Assembly (NCBI GenBank): GCA_963826325.1
Contig: CAWGWT010000004.1
Span: forward strand, 6,031 to 70,030
Direction of reading: 5' to 3'
Source: Vulcanimicrobiota bacterium
GTDB lineage: Bacteria > Vulcanimicrobiota > Vulcanimicrobiia > Vulcanimicrobiales > Vulcanimicrobiaceae
Length of the DNA: 64,000 nucleotides
Numbering within the stretch: the first letter of the stretch is position 1; every line of letters begins with the position of its first letter. Made by a program: the position numbers and the translations under genes. The notes below the pieces were generated by a model. That model had not been told where the DNA came from and made no database searches. It saw nothing but the letters and a program-made list of their open reading frames with translations. Below are positions 24,822 through 33,028 of this stretch, piece by piece.

Positions 24822-25598
24822 ATAAAATTTGGCGTCGCGCTGGTTGCCGCGCTCTTGTCGGTGACTCGACCTGTTTTTGCCGACGTACAATACGATACCT
24901 CGGGCGAAGACGCTTATCGAATCGTTTCGGCCGGGACCGCTTCAAAGGTGTCGTACGCGGGGAGCGAACGATTATCCGCGCGTCGAGAGGGCAAAGATTG
25001 GCGGTTTGAAGCACGCGCTCGGTACACGCGCAGCGGTCCCGATGGAAAGAGCCGCAACGAGGCCCTTTTCGTTCAAATCCTTCTTCCAAACGGGACGTTC
25101 GAAGACCGTCTGGATAACGATCCCGATTTCTTGACGATCCTCAATCAACCGTTTGCGGTGCGGCTCGACGTCGCCACGCTCCGAGACCTCCGCGCGCTGC
25201 ACGGTCGCGTCCCCTTCTCCGCCACTTCTCCGCTAGGATCGGAAACCGTCCTGCATGGATTTCTTCGGCCGCTGCCCGGCGGCCCGATCGATGGAACGCA
25301 GACCGTCGGCGTGCGTTTCGAAGCAGAGGGCGCGATGACCGGACCGCTGCCGGGCTATGCCGAGACGCTGGTTTCGGGAACCATGCGGATGGACGGCACC
25401 GCGTATTATACGCTCGACGGCGCGATGCTTTTGGCGCTGAGCATTACATTGACGATCGATGCACGGCTTGCTCAGAGCCGGTCGGTGTCGGTCCCGGTAC
25501 GCATCGTCTACCGCCGCTCGATTAGAGCGACCGCTAAAACGCGCCTACCAGCTCCACCTGTAACGGATGGCGAAACGGGTGCTCCCGCAACTCCGTAA
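24822..25598 (+). CDS. Secreted hypothetical protein
   Basis: The ORF track starts at TTG 24855, but the frame is open from 24807. It encodes a textbook signal peptide, (ATA)KFGVALVAALLSVTRPVFA/D, behind GGAG (24812-24815). The first canonical start is 24855. Confidence 0.6.
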   Translation: MKFGVALVAALLSVTRPVFADVQYDTSGEDAYRIVSAGTASKVSYAGSERLSARREGKDWRFEARARYTRSGPDGKSRNEALFVQILLPNGTFEDRLDNDPDFLTILNQPFAVRLDVATLRDLRALHGRVPFSATSPLGSETVLHGFLRPLPGGPIDGTQTVGVRFEAEGAMTGPLPGYAETLVSGTMRMDGTAYYTLDGAMLLALSITLTIDARLAQSRSVSVPVRIVYRRSIRATAKTRLPAPPVTDGETGAPATP

Positions 25599-25634: not shown

Positions 25635-25925
25635 TCAACATCTCAATGCCGCGTTTGACGCACCAGTCTTCTCGACGTACTTCGCGAGCTTTTTTTTGAA
25701 GTACCCTTGAGGATCTCGTAGCACTTTCGCGTAGTACGGATCCTCGGTGAGACCGGCAGGGTCGACTCCTTCCTTAGGGACGAGCCATACGAACCACGGA
25801 TCCTCGCTCTGACGGTATCCGATGAGCGCGAGCGGAAGCGCTCGTGCAGAGTTGATGTCCGGTAAAAAGCTGCACATCGTGTACGCATCCAGCGAAATTT
25901 CCGTTGGCTCGATGGTTTGCTGCAT
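25635..25925 (-). CDS. Hypothetical small protein (96 aa)
   Basis: ATG 25925 gives MQQTIEPTE... and is preceded by AAAGGTG. Coding bias is good. Confidence 0.55.
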   Translation of the reverse strand: MQQTIEPTEISLDAYTMCSFLPDINSARALPLALIGYRQSEDPWFVWLVPKEGVDPAGLTEDPYYAKVLRDPQGYFKKKLAKYVEKTGASNAALRC

Positions 25926-25955
25926 AGACAGCACCTTTCATTCGATCAATGAGCG

Positions 25956-25995: not shown

Positions 25996-26291
25996 CACGC
26001 TGTTTCCCAGGCCGGCGCCCAAGCGAAGCGGCATGGCGTTGGCTTTAGAAACGCCGCCAAAAACCCCTCCCTTCGACCCGGCGTTCCGCCGCGCTGCGGA
26101 CCGCGCGGAGTTTCTCCTAAGCAAAGGCAAAGGGCGGCGGAATCGTATCATCCTGAGCGCGGCCGCGTAGCGGCTGTCATCCTGGGGCGAGCGCAGCGAG
26201 CAGTCGAAGGACCAAGGGCGAGGGGGTCGTCAGGAGTTTTTTAGCGCGAGCGTGAAACCACCGCCCTAGCAGTGGTGGTCCGGGGCACTGT

Positions 26292-26957
26292 ATGAGCGCG
26301 CTCGCACCACTCCTTACGGGAGTATACGTGCCATCAGCGACGACGGGGCGGGCCGCGGCGACGCGACCTTCCGCCGATTCCACACCCAGCGTTGCCAATT
26401 TCGAGCGCATCGTCGACGATTATCAGCGCCGACTCTATGGATTCGCGCTTCGCATGACGGGAAACCGTGAAGATGCAGAAGAGATCGTTCAGGACGCCTT
26501 CGTTCGCGCGTACCGCGCCCTCGGCAAAATGTCGCCCGAGCAGCGTTCCGAACTGAGACTCCAGCCCTGGCTCTACACGATTACGCTCAACGTGACCCGC
26601 AATCGTTTGCGAAGCAAGCGCCCGTCAAACGTGGCGCTCGACGCGCTCGCCGATCCAGACGCGATCTTGCGCGAGTCAAACGAGGGGCCTCCGCAGCCTG
26701 AGGCAATCGTCGAACAGAATACCGAGATCGCGCTCGTCGAACGGGCGCTCTTGCAGCTGCCGATGCACCTTCGCGCCGCAGCGACGCTGCGGTTCATCGA
26801 AGGTCGCAGCCATCCCGAAATAGCCGAGATTCTCAATCAACCGATCGGCACGGTTAAGTCCCACGTCCATCGGGCCGTGCGCATTCTGCGGCGCATTTTG
26901 GGTCCGCAAATCGGACGATTTGCCACGGAAGGAGTCCTCGTGCATGCGTTGTCGTGA
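26292..26957 (+). CDS. ECF-family RNA polymerase sigma-70 factor
   Basis: Region 2 (...YQRRLYGFALRMTGNREDAEEIVQDAFVRAYRAL...PWLYTITLNVTRN...) and region 4 (...RFIEGRSHPEIAEILNQPIGTVKSHVHRAVRILR...) are both present. Confidence 0.9.
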   Translation: MSALAPLLTGVYVPSATTGRAAATRPSADSTPSVANFERIVDDYQRRLYGFALRMTGNREDAEEIVQDAFVRAYRALGKMSPEQRSELRLQPWLYTITLNVTRNRLRSKRPSNVALDALADPDAILRESNEGPPQPEAIVEQNTEIALVERALLQLPMHLRAAATLRFIEGRSHPEIAEILNQPIGTVKSHVHRAVRILRRILGPQIGRFATEGVLVHALS

Positions 26958-27675
26958 CGTCGAGGCGCTGTGGGACGAGCTTCGCGGCGAGTGTCTAGCC
27001 TCGCTAAAGGAGACCGTTCACAGCCATCTTCAAGCCTGCCCATCTTGCCAGGCAATGTACGAACAGTACGAAGGCGTGGCGTACTGCCTGTCGAGCCTGC
27101 CGCGGCCGGAACCGTCGTGCGACTTGGCAAAAAAGGTTGTCCACCACATTGCCGCCCTCAAGGGTAAGATCTATCCGCCGATCGTGCTCTCTGCGGTAAG
27201 TACGCCGGTTGGACGGCTCTACGTAGGTTTCAAATCGGATAGGATCGCTTACGTTAGCATGGATAGGGGTGAGCCCCCCGCAGAAGTGGCTCAGCGAGCG
27301 GAGCGCCGGCTGCATCGTCGGGTCGTGAGCGGCGAAGCGCCGCCCTGGCTCGTGCGCGCGATCGACCGTTTCTTCAGCACCTGGATGGTGGATGACGCAC
27401 TCGTCGATATCAGCGACTTAACCCCTTTCGAACAAGCCGTGCTTCGCGCCGCCGCGCGCATCCCGCCCGGCGAGGTGCGTTCCTACGCCTGGGTCGCAAC
27501 GCAGATTGGTCGGCCAAAAGCGGCGCGTGCAGTGGGTCGCGTGATGGCGCGTAATCCTCTTCCGTTTCTCTTTCCATGCCATCGCGTCGTCGATTCATCC
27601 GGAGATCTGCACGATTATTATTACGGTCTCAAGATGAAAGCTCGCCTTCTGGAAATGGAGGGCTACCGGGGCTAG
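26944..27675 (+). CDS. Fusion protein: zf-HC2 anti-sigma-factor domain plus methylated-DNA-protein-cysteine methyltransferase (Ogt/MGMT)
   Basis: ATG 26944 lies 14 nt inside the sigma gene. H28-x3-C32-x2-C35 (HLQACPSC, nt 27025-27048) is present. An Ogt N-domain-like segment (...STPVGRLYVGFKSDRIAYVSM...) is followed by a DNA-binding/active-site domain (...SYAWVATQIGRPKAARAVGRVMARNPLPFLFPCHRVV...), with the Cys212 codon at 27577-27579. No TM segment. Confidence 0.85.
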   Translation: MRCRDVEALWDELRGECLASLKETVHSHLQACPSCQAMYEQYEGVAYCLSSLPRPEPSCDLAKKVVHHIAALKGKIYPPIVLSAVSTPVGRLYVGFKSDRIAYVSMDRGEPPAEVAQRAERRLHRRVVSGEAPPWLVRAIDRFFSTWMVDDALVDISDLTPFEQAVLRAAARIPPGEVRSYAWVATQIGRPKAARAVGRVMARNPLPFLFPCHRVVDSSGDLHDYYYGLKMKARLLEMEGYRG

Positions 27676-27719
27676 ACGCCAACCTTAGCGAACGTGCCGA
27701 CTTCGGTGTGCGCGTTTAG

Positions 27720-29294
27720 ATGAGCGATCCGCGGATCGCGGCTATTCCCGACGTTCACGGCCACGCGAAAGGCGAACATCGCCCTTATACCGAGGAGCGA
27801 CCGATCGCGTACTCTGCGCGCATGCTCTTTCTTTGGTTCTATCATGCCTGCCGGCGGGAGTCCCCGCGCTTCTTGATGGTCGCCGACCATGCCAACTATC
27901 TCACCTTTGAAGACCCCGGCGCGGTCAACACCGTGCGCCGAGCACTGAAGTTGGCCGAAGCCGGCGATCTGCTGGGAGCTGCCGAGACGGCGGGCGTGGA
28001 CATCACGCATGCGGCTGTCGTTTCGGAAGGGTTGCGGCGGGGAATGCGCTTCTCCATCGGTGCGGAGATCGATAACGACCCGCGTGCGCGCCCGGACGCT
28101 CAAAATATCGTCGACGCGATGCGGCCCGACGGAATCATCCGGTCGGTGCACTTCGTACCCATTACCCACCCCGAAAAGGGCGCCGATTGGCTCTGGCCAT
28201 TCGACAACGAGGAGTTCAGCGAGCTGCACGAAGTCGTGGGCAGTGAGAAGCTGTGGGAACTCTACATGGCTAAACTGCTCGATGATCTCGAGAAACTGCC
28301 CGGCCAAATCGTCGGAGATTTCTATGCCCCCACGACGTTCGGCCGCTGGCCGCCCAATAAGAAGCTCGAAGAGCATGAAGACCGGATGCTCGACGTCGCT
28401 CACCGTCGCGGCATGGCGGTCGAGATCAACACGCGCTTCCTCTACCGCGACAACCCCGAGGATCGCACGAAAAAATATCTCGAAGCCAATGCCAGGCTCG
28501 TGCGCAAGGCTAAGGCTCGAGGCGTCGGCGTTGCCGTCGGTTCGGATGCTCACAGTCCCAAGGACCAGGGCAACGCTTTCGGAATGGTCCTCAGGCTGCT
28601 CGATGAGGCGCGAGTAAACGAGGTCGTCTTTCCTGTGGCGGGACGATTGGCTCGGGTGGCACTGCGTGCGACGCGCGAACATCTGGAAGCGCAGGCCCAG
28701 GCGCTCCGTCAACCCAGCGCACCGGGAAGCAGCATAACCGGTTACAGCCGAGCGGAGCTCGGACTCCCGGAAGCAGCCGAACTGCCCTCCTCGCGTCGGA
28801 GTGGGCGCACGCGCGACGCGGGACCAAAAAAACGTGTCGGCGATTCCGCACGCGCGGTGAAGCGACCAGCCGCCCCCCCGCCGCCTAGCACGAGTTCGTC
28901 GCGTCGCTCCGCGGAATCTTCGTCTTCTGCAAACAAAGCCAAGAATGCCCGACTCGTCAAACCCGCCTCTTTACCGAAACAGAAAAAAACAAGCAAGAAG
29001 GCAGTTTCAAAGCCCTCCCCCAGCACTGTAAAAAAGTCCTCGCCGGCGGGAGTTCGGCCAGCGAAGAAAGCGGCCCGCAAAACCACCTCGCGCAAACCGG
29101 CGGCGACAAAAGCGGCGTCACGAAAATCCGCCGCCAGGAAATCTCCGGTTAGGAAATCGCCCACCCGGGCACCTGGGACGAAGAAAGCTGCGGCGAAAAA
29201 GCCGGCGCCGCACAGGAGACCAAAGCCCAAGCGCCTACCCGGGTACGCAAAGAAGAGCGTCAAAAAGAAAAAGACCGCGGCCAAGCGCCGTTAA
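27720..29294 (+). CDS. PHP-domain phosphoesterase (HisJ/histidinol-phosphatase-like) with a roughly 190-aa histone-H1-like basic C-terminal tail
   Basis: PHP motifs are present: IPDVHGH, ...IRSVHFV..., ...AVEINTRF..., ...GSDAHSP.... From about nt 28720 onward the product is Lys/Ala/Pro/Ser/Arg-rich (...KKAARKTTSRKPAATKAASRKSAARKSPVRKSPTRAPGTKKAAAKKPAP...KKSVKKKKTAAKRR). Confidence 0.8.
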   Translation: MSDPRIAAIPDVHGHAKGEHRPYTEERPIAYSARMLFLWFYHACRRESPRFLMVADHANYLTFEDPGAVNTVRRALKLAEAGDLLGAAETAGVDITHAAVVSEGLRRGMRFSIGAEIDNDPRARPDAQNIVDAMRPDGIIRSVHFVPITHPEKGADWLWPFDNEEFSELHEVVGSEKLWELYMAKLLDDLEKLPGQIVGDFYAPTTFGRWPPNKKLEEHEDRMLDVAHRRGMAVEINTRFLYRDNPEDRTKKYLEANARLVRKAKARGVGVAVGSDAHSPKDQGNAFGMVLRLLDEARVNEVVFPVAGRLARVALRATREHLEAQAQALRQPSAPGSSITGYSRAELGLPEAAELPSSRRSGRTRDAGPKKRVGDSARAVKRPAAPPPPSTSSSRRSAESSSSANKAKNARLVKPASLPKQKKTSKKAVSKPSPSTVKKSSPAGVRPAKKAARKTTSRKPAATKAASRKSAARKSPVRKSPTRAPGTKKAAAKKPAPHRRPKPKRLPGYAKKSVKKKKTAAKRR

Positions 29295-29320: not shown

Positions 29321-31375
29321 GTGGCGGACATTGAGCGCCTTCGGAATATCGCTTTCGTCGGACCGCATCACGCGGGCAAGACGACGCTTGTCGAGGCGAT
29401 CCTTGCGCATACCGGAGCGATCGGACGACGGGGTTCGATCTCCGACGGCACGACCGTAACCGATCACGAACCTGAGGATGCGGCGCATTTGCAATCGACT
29501 ACGGTGGGACTTGCACATACGGCGGCAGACGGAGTCGAGATCACTATCGTGGACACACCTGGCTTCATCGACTTCTTCGAAGAGACGAAGCAAGCACTGG
29601 CCGGCGTTGACGCCGCCGTCGTCGTGGTGGAAGCCGATCCAGGACGCATCGTTCAAACTCAGGCCATTGTCGACCATCTCGAAGCGACGCACATGCCGCA
29701 TATCTTTGTGATCAACAAGATGGACCGGCCCGGCGCAGATTTTTCGCAAACGCTGGCCGCGCTGCAAAACGCGTACGGTCGGCACGTCGTTGCCGAACAG
29801 TTGCCGCTGGGCAGTGCCGAACGATTTGAAGGCTATATCGATCTCGCGCAAGTGACGGCATACCGCTTCGCCGGCGAGTCAGGCGGTGGAACCTTCGGCG
29901 AAAAGCAAGATGCGGTTCCCGATGAGCTGGCGGAAACCGCGCGCGGCCTTCACGTGGAGCTGCTCGAAGCCATGGCCGACTTCGACGATCGCTTGATGGA
30001 GGAGCTGCTCGAAGGCGTTGAACCGCCGCTCGAGGAGATCGAACGGGATCTCTGCAGCGAGTGCGCTCACGACCAAGTTGTTCCGGTCTTGGTTGCGGCC
30101 GGCGGATCTGGTGCAGGCGTAGCCGCGCTCGTGCGAGCCGTCGAAAAGTGGTTTCCATCGCCGACGCAGGCTCCGCATCTCGACGCTGAGGGACGCCCGA
30201 TCCCGCCCGACCCGGCCGCGCCGGTCGTCGCGCGCATCATCAAGACTTCGATACATCCGCAAAGCGGCAAACTCTCGATTGCGCGGGTCCTGTCGGGAAC
30301 GATCAAAGCCGACGCGACGCTAACCAACGCCACCAAACGTGACGAGAAGGTTCGTCTTGGCGGACTCTATCGGCTGCAAGGCAAGAAACAGGAGCCAATT
30401 CCCGAGGCGGGTCCCGGTGCGATCGTCGCGCTCGCCCGGCTCGAGTCGGTCGCAACAGGTGATACCCTCACGTCGAACGGTCACAAAGTGCTCTTGCCGC
30501 GGGTGCCGGTCGCGGAGCCCGTCTTCGCGGTGGCCATCAAGCCGAAAGAGCGCATCGACGAGGCGAAAATTTCACAGATGTTGACGCGCATCGTCGACGA
30601 GGACCCGGCGCTGCGCATCGAGCGTGCCGAAGTGACGCACGAGCTCCTGCTGCTGGGCAGCGGGGAGCAGCACGTTTCCATGGCGGTCGAACGGCTGGCG
30701 CGCAAGTACAAAGTCGAGGCCGAAACGGCCGCCCCGACGATTCCGTATCAGGAAACGATCACCGGGGGCACCGAAATCCATTCGCGTTACAAGCACCAGA
30801 CGGGTGGTCACGGTCAGTTCGGCGATGTATGGCTGCGTTTTGAACCGCGCGAGCGCGGCGCGGGCGTTACCTTTGAAGAGAAGATCGTCGGCGGCGTCGT
30901 TCCACGGCAATTCATTCCGGCCGTCGAGAAGGGCGTGCGCGAAGCGCTCGCGCGTGGAGCCAGTGGCTATCCGGTGACGGATCTGCACGTAACGCTCTTC
31001 GACGGTCAGTATCACGACGTCGATTCCAGCGAGCAGTCGTTCAAGACCGCCGCCGGGATGGGGGTGCGCGAAGCTCTTCCAAAGTGCAATCCGGTCGTAC
31101 TCGAACCGATCGCGTACGTGCGGGTGACGGTGCCCACCGCCTACACGTCTACGGTCATCCAGCAGCTCACCGGTAAGCGCGGTCAAATTCTCGGCATGAA
31201 TCCGGCCGACCGGACCGGCTTCGACGTCGTCGAGGCATACGTGCCCGCAGTCGAACTCTCGCGCTACATCACCGAGCTTCGCACCGGAACGCAGGGCCTC
31301 GGTACCTATAGCTGGCGCCACGAGCGGTACGACCCGGTTCCCGGAGATCGCGTCGCTCCGAAGGCTGCGGTGTAG
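29321..31375 (+). CDS. Elongation factor G family GTPase (EF-G paralog)
   Basis: G1 is GPHHAGKTT, G3 is DTPGFIDF and G4 is NKMD. Domains II-V are collinear with EF-G (...HSRYKHQTGGHGQFGDVWLRFEP...). Confidence 0.9.
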   Translation: MADIERLRNIAFVGPHHAGKTTLVEAILAHTGAIGRRGSISDGTTVTDHEPEDAAHLQSTTVGLAHTAADGVEITIVDTPGFIDFFEETKQALAGVDAAVVVVEADPGRIVQTQAIVDHLEATHMPHIFVINKMDRPGADFSQTLAALQNAYGRHVVAEQLPLGSAERFEGYIDLAQVTAYRFAGESGGGTFGEKQDAVPDELAETARGLHVELLEAMADFDDRLMEELLEGVEPPLEEIERDLCSECAHDQVVPVLVAAGGSGAGVAALVRAVEKWFPSPTQAPHLDAEGRPIPPDPAAPVVARIIKTSIHPQSGKLSIARVLSGTIKADATLTNATKRDEKVRLGGLYRLQGKKQEPIPEAGPGAIVALARLESVATGDTLTSNGHKVLLPRVPVAEPVFAVAIKPKERIDEAKISQMLTRIVDEDPALRIERAEVTHELLLLGSGEQHVSMAVERLARKYKVEAETAAPTIPYQETITGGTEIHSRYKHQTGGHGQFGDVWLRFEPRERGAGVTFEEKIVGGVVPRQFIPAVEKGVREALARGASGYPVTDLHVTLFDGQYHDVDSSEQSFKTAAGMGVREALPKCNPVVLEPIAYVRVTVPTAYTSTVIQQLTGKRGQILGMNPADRTGFDVVEAYVPAVELSRYITELRTGTQGLGTYSWRHERYDPVPGDRVAPKAAV

Positions 31376-31399: not shown

Positions 31400-33028
31400 A
31401 TGCCTAAAGCGTTCTGCGATCGTTCTCTTGGCCACGGTGCTATGCTCGTGCACGAAAGTTTCCAACGGGACAGTCGGAGCGCGTCATTCGTGGACGCTGG
31501 CCGGCGATTTGCGCGTCGCGGTCCCGACCGATTTCAAGAATCTCAACCCGTTGCTGAATTCGAACACGGCAGACGTTTTCGTCGACCGGCTGATGTTCGA
31601 GCCGCTCATCACCGCCGACCCTAAGGGTATTCCACTGCCGATGCTGGCGGCGCAGGTGCCGACGCTCACCAACGGCGGAATCAGCTCCGACGGCCTGACC
31701 ATCACGTATCACCTGCGCCGAGATGCGAAATGGACCGATGGCGTTTCCGTCACGTCGCACGACGTTAAATGGTCGTGGCAAGCAATCATGAATCCCAACA
31801 ACAACGTCGTATCGCGACACGGCTACGACGATGTCGCGAGCATCATCACGCCGAATCCGGGCACGGTTGTCGTCCATTTGAAGCGCCGGTTCGCTCCTTT
31901 CGTCGATACGTTTTTTGCCGAAAGCGATCAACCGTACATGATTGCGCCCGCGCACGTCCTGGCAGGCTATTCAAACATCAATCAGATTTCTTTCAACAGC
32001 CGGCCCACCGTCAGCGACGGTCCATTCAAATTCGTCACTTGGGCGCGAGGCGACCACGTCTCGCTCGTAAGTAACGAAGCGTTTTTCCTCGGCAAGCCGG
32101 GACTCGACCGAATCGAGATCCGAATCGTTCCCGATGAGGATACGTCCATCACGCTGTTGAGGACGCATGCCATCGATTACATGTTTCAGGCGTCGATCGA
32201 AAACTACGAGGCCCTGCACTCGCTTGCCGATGTTCACATAGTATGGGTGAACGTGAACGGCTACGGTTACGTCCAGCTCAATGTCGCCCGGCCCTACTTG
32301 GCGATCCGCGCGTTCGGCTTGCGATTGCCTATGCCGTCGACAAGAGGGAGCTCGTCCGAACGCTCACCTACGGGACGCAGACGGTAGCGACGGCGGACAT
32401 CCCGGATTGGATGTGGGCATTCAATCCCAACATTCGTAACTACCCGCACGATCCAGCGATTGCGCGCCAGGAGCTGCGGGAAGCGGGTTGGGCGGCCGGT
32501 CCCGATGGAATCATGCGCAAGGGCGGGGAACCGCTGCAACTGGTGATGGTCACCAACAATTCCAGCGCCACCCGCCGGCGCGAGGCGCTCGAGATTCAGG
32601 CGATGCTGCGCCAGGCCGGAATCGACTCGGAGATCAAATATTATCCAGCCGACGTACTCTTTGCTCCCGCCGGCATGGGCGGAATTTTGCAGCTCGGTAA
32701 GTTTGACATCTCGGTCAGCGGATGGTATGCGGGCATCGACCCCGACGACAGCACGCAATATACATGCGAGAACTTTCCGCCAAGCGGTTATAACTACTCG
32801 CGATATTGCAGCCCCCAGATGCAAGCCGCTCAAACGATCGCGTTGACGCACTACGACCACGCCTCGCGCACCGCTGCGTACTACAAAATCCAGGAGCTTT
32901 TGGTGCAGGACAATCCGGCGTTGTTCGTTTATTGGCTGCGTCAGATGGAGCCGATCAGCGTAGACTTTCGCGGATTCGATCCAAACCCGGTCGTCGAGTC
33001 GTGGAACGCGTGGCAATGGCGGATCTAG
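31400..33028 (+). pseudogene. ABC transporter substrate-binding lipoprotein (family 5, peptide/nickel type), two frameshifts
   Basis: ORFs 31428-32387 and 32243-33028 are collinear, switching frame near 32285-32300 (...LNVAR / PALLGDPRVRLAIAYAVDK...). ATG 31400 is one frame off. Removing one A from AAA at 31406-31408 gives MPKRSAIVLLATVLCSC, a normal lipoprotein signal. Confidence 0.8.

Follow-up and report, generated by a model that had tools for sequence, protein, structure and literature searches.

A 64,000-nucleotide stretch of the genome of a Vulcanimicrobiota bacterium (contig CAWGWT010000004.1 of assembly GCA_963826325.1; called the window below, with positions counted from its first letter) encodes a sigma factor of the extracytoplasmic function (ECF) type, whose gene overlaps that of a fusion protein joining a class-I anti-sigma domain to a complete O6-alkylguanine-DNA alkyltransferase (MGMT). 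The same pair of genes is present in bacteria of at least five phyla, and the conservation of its architecture and pairing goes far beyond chance. That the two products stand to each other as sigma factor and anti-sigma factor is very probable. We propose, with a confidence only a little above an even chance, that they form a two-gene autoregulated module whose anti-sigma factor doubles as a suicide repair enzyme, and that alkylation of that enzyme releases the sigma factor. The features on which this proposal is built are the following.

26254 to 26280, forward strand: ECF-type promoter-like element GAAACC-N17-GGTC, with the -35 box GAAAC at 26254-26258 and the -10 box GGTC at 26277-26280.
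26292 to 26957, forward strand: gene for an ECF (group 4) sigma factor of 221 aa, assigned by Pfam and NCBIfam matches.
26927 to 26934, forward strand: Shine-Dalgarno sequence GGAAGGAG of the fusion gene, located within the 3' end of the sigma gene, 9 nt before ATG 26944, as read from the sequence.
26944 to 27675, forward strand: fusion gene, beginning at ATG 26944 and encoding 243 aa with an anti-sigma domain and an O6-alkylguanine-DNA alkyltransferase.
26944 to 27171, forward strand: class-I anti-sigma domain, residues 1-76, assigned from zinc ligands, profile matches and predicted helices.
27181 to 27423, forward strand: MGMT N-terminal (RNase-H-like) domain, about residues 80-160, from the structural model, profile and Foldseek matches.
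27424 to 27663, forward strand: MGMT C-terminal DNA-binding and active-site domain, residues 161-240, matching PF01035 at 2.9e-29.

The loci compared come from a scan in which each GTDB species was represented by one genome and which gave at least 599 relatives, from which 80 loci were kept. Loci L001 to L057 belong to the Eremiobacterota/Vulcanimicrobiota (Eremiobacterota below), so that the window falls in that phylum, near Candidatus Cybelea, and L061 is a further Eremiobacterota copy; the others come mainly from Acidobacteriota (chiefly Thermoanaerobaculia), Chloroflexota (Chloroflexia and Dormibacteria), Latescibacterota and Acidimicrobiia, with a few from unclassified bins. At all 80, in at least five phyla, a homologue of the window's sigma factor lies directly upstream of the fusion gene on the same strand and ends at or just past the fusion start, with overlaps of 11-14 nt where the ends of the open reading frames (ORFs) or genes were read. 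Independent gene calls with precomputed Pfam labels gave the same arrangement and the same range of overlaps. An earlier note on this DNA, made from its letters alone, had named conserved sigma adjacency as a check on its interpretation, and the adjacency has turned out to hold at every one of these loci. Because the other neighbors change between phyla, we regard the sigma-fusion pair as the conserved unit. One Eremiobacterota genome contains a second pair that looks degraded (L061:3264-4714), in which the sigma match is split among three frames and a frameshift interrupts the fusion ORF, whose PCHRV region is followed by unrelated sequence.

The first gene of the pair encodes a sigma factor with regions 2 and 4, as the earlier note had described. 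Region 2 lies at about residues 41-110 (Sigma70_r2, 8.1e-17) and region 4 at about residues 148-200 (Sigma70_r4_2, 5.9e-14); no match to region 3 was found, and the protein scored 97 bits against the sigma70-ECF model TIGR02937, which has a cut-off of 42.9. Sigma-2 and sigma-4 domains, the absence of regions 1.1 and 3, and a length of about 200 aa give it the composition of a group 4 ECF sigma factor. It reached none of the NCBIfam equivalog cut-offs, the best being SigW (110 bits versus 209), and the nearest solved ECF sigma factors, an unnamed sigma factor (8z6g_B), sigma-H (6in7_B), SigW, SigH and SigE, were about equally close to it (roughly 1e-22 to 1e-17).

The sigma protein begins with a conserved peptide, MSALAPLL, whose eight codons show only synonymous changes in a comparison across loci, in which the indels are in frame; ATG 26292 therefore appears to be the real start. 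Since this start lies only 11 nt past the -10 box of the promoter-like element, the sigma transcript would have no leader or almost none. Also conserved is an internal GGAG-N7-GTG (GTG at 26328), which could serve as a second start; gene callers have chosen shorter versions of 210 or 167 aa, with a later start, in related genomes.

The promoter-like element is conserved in position as well as in sequence. The motif G(A/C)AAC(C/T)-N16/17-(C/T)GGT(C/T) was found before the sigma gene in 45 of 54 Eremiobacterota upstream regions, and in 42 of those 45 it ends 9-12 nt before the start codon. Both boxes and their spacing are conserved among these loci, with a spacer of varying sequence. At the equivalent place, Thermoanaerobaculia have CGAAC-N18-GTTC, and the sigma genes of Acidimicrobiia are preceded by TGCAACC-N~16-GGGTT. 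The predicted element in the window combines the AAC-containing -35 box and the short G/T-rich -10 box of autoregulatory ECF promoters, and we take it to resemble the SigR/SigH-type promoter GGAAT-N18-GTT. As a predicted promoter of ECF type with a conserved position precedes the sigma gene, autoregulation of the operon is probable.

Some candidates in and around this element were set aside. A hairpin CCACC..GGTGG within the promoter spacer was rejected as an RNA structure, as it shows no covariation in relatives, and the other three window matches to the promoter pattern were rejected as regulon sites, being chance matches inside genes or far from gene starts. A conserved TCAGGAGTTTTT(T), preceded by a small G+C hairpin (26217-26231), lies some 10 nt upstream of that element's -35 box; the region as a whole (26217-26242) was flagged as terminator-like by the scan and could either insulate the operon as a terminator or act as an upstream promoter element.

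The sigma gene, whose stop codon TGA falls at 26955-26957, and the fusion gene share 14 nt, and this overlap suggests that translation of the fusion is coupled to that of the ECF sigma factor. The homologues compared here all begin MRC... and are 240-244 aa long. The protein has no transmembrane segment, the highest 19-residue Kyte-Doolittle mean being 1.08. On all of these points, the 14-nt overlap, the ORF of 243 aa and the lack of a membrane segment, the earlier note's reading was accurate. Directly 3' of the fusion stop codon (27676-27705) is a sequence, GACGCCAACCTTAGCGAAGGTGGCG, that is conserved in loci of the Cybelea clade and forms an imperfect inverted repeat in relatives that is weakened in the window. 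This post-stop sequence (GACGCCAACC..GGTGGCG in the Cybelea clade) was rejected both as a second ECF promoter, for which the spacing does not fit, and as a hairpin, the repeat being broken in the window copy.

Residues 1-76 of the fusion carry the predicted zinc ligands Cys3 (codon 26950-26952) and His28, Cys32 and Cys35 (27025-27048), in the pattern C-x24-H-x3-C-x2-C. These four residues are invariant in a 70-sequence alignment across phyla; among 136 Eremiobacterota homologues, each of the three cysteines is present in 136 and His28 in 135. His68 is also invariant in the Eremiobacterota domains, and distant full-length homologues from other phyla align with the window protein from residue 1. 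When a profile of residues 1-80 was compared with all PDB sequences, the five best matches were anti-sigma domains: RslA (3hug_B, 3.7e-6), RsiW (1.3e-5), DdvA (1e-3) and two entries for ChrR (1e-2), with RsrA lower (0.24). The AlphaFold model of this part (pLDDT 87) predicts helices at residues 3-14, 19-31 and 33-50, then a linker and a fourth helix at 59/60-76, an arrangement that would fit the three-plus-one topology of class-I anti-sigma domains. Five of the six homologues outside the Eremiobacterota that bear the zinc anti-sigma domain and were scanned scored 22.6-27.8 bits against zf-HC2, the sixth (L060) scoring 14.4. With these homologue scores, the invariant ligands and the PDB profile matches together, the class-I anti-sigma assignment is solid at the family level.

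The remainder of the fusion is an alkyltransferase that is complete and looks active. Its C-terminal domain matches PF01035 (DNA_binding_1) at 2.9e-29 and the NCBIfam ogt model TIGR00589 at 2.2e-26 (91.7 bits versus a cut-off of 46.4), so that the profile check suggested by the earlier note gave strong matches. The Pfam Methyltransf_1N model did not match the window protein. An AlphaFold2 model built on the 70-sequence alignment (mean pLDDT 87.2) places beta strands at residues 80-106 and helices at 112-146 in the N-terminal MGMT domain and a helix-turn-helix in the C-terminal one, and Foldseek aligned 163-182 columns of the model with complete alkyltransferases, among them Mycobacterium tuberculosis OGT (4bhb; E 1.3e-11, TMt 0.73, 168 columns), Ada-C (1sfe; TMt 0.77) and human AGT. 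The family profile likewise aligns with residues 12-175 of Ada-C 1sfe (2.4e-30). Since the model matches span whole alkyltransferases, both MGMT domains are present, and the full Ogt/MGMT with an intact PCHRV site that the earlier note had read is borne out, including the codon of the acceptor Cys212 at 27577-27579.

Conservation extends to the individual residues of the active site. Tyr181, Arg195, Asn204, Cys212, His213, Arg214, Tyr225 and Glu239 are invariant in the cross-phylum alignment and in the 136 Eremiobacterota homologues, apart from Tyr225 (135 of 136), and the MGMT residues of the fusion were also matched one by one to M. tuberculosis OGT. We take Tyr181, Arg195, Asn204, His213, Tyr225 and Glu239 to correspond to Tyr114, Arg128, Asn137, His146, Tyr158 and Glu172 of human AGT. 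Because the zinc ligands and the MGMT residues are all invariant or present in 135 of 136 sequences, both activities are, to judge from this pattern, under selection, and the protein is not a dead alkyltransferase-like protein.

Most relatives outside the Eremiobacterota are longer, at about 295 aa, and end in an Ada_Zn_binding domain (PF02805; 36-49 bits). This C-terminal domain has the pattern C-x-P-T-C ... C-x2-C-R-P with all four zinc cysteines, and its profile matches N-Ada (1adn) at 2.3e-9. The architecture of anti-sigma domain, MGMT and N-Ada is represented by at least 120 clusters at 90% identity, and those of them that carry a source name are all annotated simply as methyltransferases. 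This three-domain variant occurs in Acidobacteriota, Chloroflexota and Latescibacterota and in one protein annotated Longimicrobiales; the variant with anti-sigma domain and MGMT is that of the window, of all Eremiobacterota and of scattered others; and Acidimicrobiia have a short N-terminus followed by MGMT and N-Ada. Neither the window protein nor any of the relatives scanned gave a match to an AraC-type helix-turn-helix (HTH_18/AraC), and the window protein scored 69 bits against the NCBIfam Ada equivalog, for which the cut-off is 345. As most relatives outside the Eremiobacterota carry the N-Ada Zn(Cys)4 domain, the wider family is, in its domain composition, an Ada whose AraC DNA-binding output has been replaced by an anti-sigma domain. 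The N-Ada domain of the relatives, which the earlier note had not foreseen, ties the family directly to the Ada alkylation switch and strengthens that note's idea.

These observations suggest the following model. The anti-sigma domain (residues 1-76) would hold the co-translated sigma factor inactive while the attached alkyltransferase scans DNA and transfers the alkyl group of an O6-alkylguanine irreversibly onto Cys212. Alkylation of Cys212 would then disable the anti-sigma factor, either because its conformation changes or because it becomes a substrate for proteases, and one sigma factor would be freed for each lesion repaired. S-alkylation distorts and destabilizes alkyltransferases such as human AGT (structures 1eh7 and 1eh8), which makes release by unfolding or proteolysis plausible. 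The freed sigma factor would transcribe its own operon from GAAACC-N17-GGTC, and further targets as well, and newly made, unalkylated fusion protein would both repair DNA and recapture sigma, shutting the response off once the lesions are gone. In the three-domain relatives, transfer of an alkyl group from a methylphosphotriester to the first N-Ada cysteine might act as a further trigger. The interpretation put forward in the earlier note is supported by this analysis: each computational outcome that the note had named as refuting was looked for and none came about, with the zf-HC2 assignment supported at the family level. What the sequences show is the architecture of the domains, the intact zinc and catalytic residues, the overlap of the genes, the sigma pairing across phyla and the conserved promoter; that the N-terminal domain binds the sigma factor, that alkylation is the signal for its release, and how it is released, we infer.

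In its wider form, to which we give slightly less than an even chance, the proposal would give at least five phyla a widespread, so far unnoticed alternative to the Ada regulon, an adaptive response to DNA alkylation run by an ECF sigma factor that is held by a suicide repair protein. Each repair event would irreversibly consume one anti-sigma factor and free one sigma factor, making the pair a stoichiometric damage counter with built-in shut-off, and in Eremiobacterota the MGMT cysteine alone would serve as the sensor, without N-Ada.

Several observations weigh against the alkylation-release model. The window protein stops 3 residues past the MGMT domain and lacks N-Ada (PF02805), and in Escherichia coli Ada it is the N-Ada domain that acts as the switch, the methylated C-terminal MGMT cysteine not being the activating signal. 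The proteins of Acidimicrobiia lack helices 1-3 and the zinc site and have kept the sigma pairing, for which a complete anti-sigma domain is thus not strictly required. The H-x3-C-x2-C motif of the zf-HC2 domain claimed by the earlier note is exactly where it was read, at 27025-27048, and family-level matches exist, but for the window protein alone the score against PF13490 (18.4 bits, E 0.0024) is below the gathering score of 22.2. A Foldseek search with the isolated N-terminal model gave RsiW (5wuq_D) as its top PDB match, a weak and non-significant one (E 0.25, TM ~0.5) that is consistent with an anti-sigma fold and no proof of it. The promoter-motif search for a regulon that the earlier note had suggested yielded no second convincing promoter copy in the 64-kb window, where four loose pattern matches compare with 2.55 expected. 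Nor was any alkylation-repair gene found in the window, and an AlkA-like gene accompanies the pair at 1 of 85 loci (flanks of about 4-8 kb). Finally, the Eremiobacterota anti-sigma domains have extra conserved cysteines, Cys48 in 125, Cys51 in 104, Cys59 in 121 and Cys17 in 119 of the 136 homologues.

The extra cysteines, which are absent from other phyla and give most Eremiobacterota homologues a second C-x2-C, could form one more site, for metal, redox or alkyl acceptance, acquired upon the loss of N-Ada. They make it a real alternative that the zinc-cysteine domain is itself the sensor, as in RsrA, with zinc and sigma factor released by oxidants or electrophiles, including SN2 methylating agents attacking the zinc thiolates directly, and with MGMT as nothing but a fused effector, whose expression would in this way be coupled to the response. 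The complete and invariant C-x24-H-x3-C-x2-C pattern, the presumed likeness of the promoter to the SigR/SigH type and the weak match of the N-terminal profile to RsrA (E 0.24) all fit such thiol or electrophile sensing. We nevertheless consider it unlikely, at about one chance in five in our estimation. Many zinc anti-sigma domains are not redox sensors, and those that match best here (RslA, ChrR and RsiW) are among them; in the window protein, Cys51 is replaced by serine (AYCLSS versus AYCLSC); the Acidimicrobiia have sigma factor, MGMT and N-Ada without any zinc site; and a sensor confined to the zinc domain leaves unexplained why two alkyl-acceptor domains have been fused to it in several phyla.

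The Acidimicrobiia variant, which is without most of the anti-sigma domain, also leaves room for simple co-expression, in which the N-terminal domain would be a structural or DNA-related zinc module that does not bind sigma, and the sigma factor, regulated in some other way, would drive a repair gene in its own operon. The sub-threshold zf-HC2 score of the window protein points the same way, as does the filing of ECF122, which has MGMT neighbors, under "no anti-sigma factor" (PMC8999054). Yet the five best PDB matches of the N-terminal profile are all anti-sigma domains, and a gene directly downstream of the sigma gene, overlapping it by 11-14 nt and adjacent to it at 80 of 80 loci, is the canonical sigma/anti-sigma arrangement. 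Even the short N-terminus of the Acidimicrobiia proteins, which aligns only with the linker and helix 4, retains that segment of the domain, and we judge co-expression without sigma binding to be improbable. Still less probable, to the point that we give it very little weight, is a fusion that acts as an anti-sigma factor whose MGMT part parks the sigma complex on DNA or delivers holoenzyme to damage, with no alkylation switch. MGMT domains do bind DNA non-specifically and cooperatively, and the DNA-contact residues Arg195 and Tyr181 are conserved. Against such tethering, Cys212, His213 and Glu239 are invariant although they are dispensable for DNA binding, as alkyltransferase-like proteins without the cysteine illustrate, and the N-Ada acceptor added in the relatives suggests that selection has acted on alkyl transfer; the invariant acceptor cysteine in particular makes pure tethering unlikely. 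Release of the sigma factor by alkylation of the fused MGMT is the reading that we prefer.

The genes around the pair were considered for what they might say about its targets. In the window, two genes follow the fusion on the same strand.

27720 to 29294, forward strand: weak PHP-family phosphoesterase, 524 aa, possibly co-transcribed, 44 nt after the fusion gene.
29321 to 31375, forward strand: full-length elongation factor G (EF-G) paralogue, 684 aa, after the PHP-like gene.

No terminator-like site was found in the 44-nt gap between the fusion and the PHP-like gene. The PHP-like protein matches Pfam PHP at 1.3e-3 and a histidinol phosphatase (2yxo) at 1.5e-8, and its tail of about 170 residues is rich in Lys, Ala and Pro and resembles histone H1, which suggests DNA binding. 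The gene lies downstream of the fusion at 55 loci, none of them from another phylum, and at some loci a peptidase gene is inserted between the two; whether it belongs to the sigma/fusion module is uncertain. The order PHP-like gene then EF-G is kept at 42 Eremiobacterota loci. Beyond EF-G, a family-5 solute-binding protein gene (SBP_bac_5) is split into overlapping forward-strand ORFs in different frames (31428-32387 and 32243-33028); because the syntenic gene (L085 12483-14114) in a related genome of Cybelea is one uninterrupted ORF of 543 aa, the window copy is taken to be frameshifted, as a pseudogene or through an assembly error. On the other side of the pair, two upstream ORFs without a Pfam match are conserved, one at 24855-25598 on the forward strand (247 aa) in 53 Eremiobacterota loci and one at 25635-25934 on the reverse strand (99 aa) in 38.

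Other phyla have other neighbors. In Thermoanaerobaculia, a SpoIIE/PP2C-type phosphatase gene (1.6e-42) directly follows the three-domain gene (L071:1909-2610), with equivalents at L059, L063, L065, L066, L072, L076 and L078, and hints at an extra partner-switching or phospho-regulatory layer. At a Chloroflexia locus (L062:3391-6645), the order is sigma factor, anti-sigma/MGMT/N-Ada protein, an MGMT/N-Ada paralogue without the anti-sigma domain, and an AlkA-like HhH-GPD glycosylase; this gene set resembles an ada-type operon and is the clearest link to an alkylation-repair operon. At an Acidimicrobiia locus (L081:6805-12765), the genes after the pair encode a conserved protein of 388 aa without a Pfam match, a rhomboid protease and a LigD primase-polymerase and, further downstream, an ATP-dependent DNA ligase, glutaredoxin, archease and RtcB, a neighborhood rich in repair and ligation functions. 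The conserved neighbors were rejected as clues to the regulon, being phylum-specific (PHP-like and EF-G, or SpoIIE-type) or, for the AlkA-like gene, seen at a single one of the 85 loci. Because the downstream genes differ between phyla, no general regulon emerges from synteny.

The proposed system shares its central principle with E. coli Ada, in which irreversible transfer of an alkyl group to a protein cysteine couples transcription to DNA alkylation. In its C-terminal part the window protein is homologous to Ada-C, the relatives in other phyla carry N-Ada, and in both systems the regulator is encoded in the operon that it induces or, in our proposal, would induce. It differs from Ada in lacking an AraC-type helix-turn-helix, so that it would act by releasing an ECF sigma factor and not by binding promoters, and in the order of domains, which is reversed in the three-domain relatives (anti-sigma, MGMT, N-Ada). 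As the window protein has no N-Ada domain, sensing would have to fall to the MGMT cysteine, unlike in Ada.

With the zinc anti-sigma factors RsrA, RslA, ChrR and RsiW, the fusion shares the signature C/H-x(23-26)-H-x3-C-x2-C, the four predicted helices and a gene overlapping that of an upstream ECF sigma factor, and like RsrA it is soluble. The difference lies in the C-terminal module, which is a cupin in ChrR, membrane or extracytoplasmic in RsiW and RslA, and missing from RsrA; here it is a DNA alkyltransferase with or without N-Ada, and the proposed signal is DNA damage that the anti-sigma factor itself repairs. Stand-alone Ogt/MGMT proteins such as M. tuberculosis OGT and human AGT have the same two-domain fold, the PCHRV site and all the catalytic and DNA-contact residues, but neither the 76-residue N-terminal anti-sigma domain nor the obligatory pairing with an ECF sigma factor.

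An association between MGMT genes and ECF sigma factors is already on record. A 2022 review, citing the 2021 reclassification, gives 6-O-methylguanine DNA methyltransferases as conserved neighbors of ECF122, a group that it lists under no anti-sigma factor and unknown mechanism, with an example from Cellulomonas (PMC8999054); the main text of the 2021 classification by Casas-Pastor et al. does not mention this neighborhood. ECF122 resembles the system described here in having MGMT in a conserved neighborhood, and the Cellulomonas example is actinobacterial, as are our Acidimicrobiia loci. It differs in being listed without an anti-sigma factor, whereas in Eremiobacterota, Acidobacteriota and Chloroflexota the MGMT protein bears the anti-sigma domain. 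The likeness between ECF122 and the window's sigma factor is one of a neighboring MGMT gene, and the best 120 matches of a protein search meant to tie the Acidimicrobiia variant to Cellulomonas or ECF122 were all either without a source name or named Acidimicrobiia. Apart from the ECF122 remark, the literature searched held no characterized sigma/anti-sigma-MGMT system. The earlier note's statement that it knew of no characterized example thus stands for the mechanism, but the gene association as such had been recorded (PMC8999054). As far as we searched, what is apparently new is the anti-sigma domain on an MGMT protein, the N-Ada domain in its relatives and the spread of the module over several phyla.

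If the proposal is correct, this would be the first case of an anti-sigma factor taking its signal from a lesion in DNA that the same protein repairs, and it would represent a second, independent route from suicide alkyl transfer to transcription besides Ada. It would also explain an ECF group now filed as having no anti-sigma factor and an unknown mechanism. The module is small, comprising two genes and one promoter, and its orthogonality and irreversibility would make it attractive as a synthetic reporter of alkylation damage. The family itself offers a natural dissection series, from anti-sigma domain plus MGMT, through anti-sigma domain, MGMT and N-Ada, to a form in which helix 4 alone accompanies MGMT and N-Ada. 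For the uncultured Eremiobacterota, Thermoanaerobaculia, Dormibacteria and Acidimicrobiia in which these genes occur, the pair would provide a first regulatory handle on responses to DNA damage.

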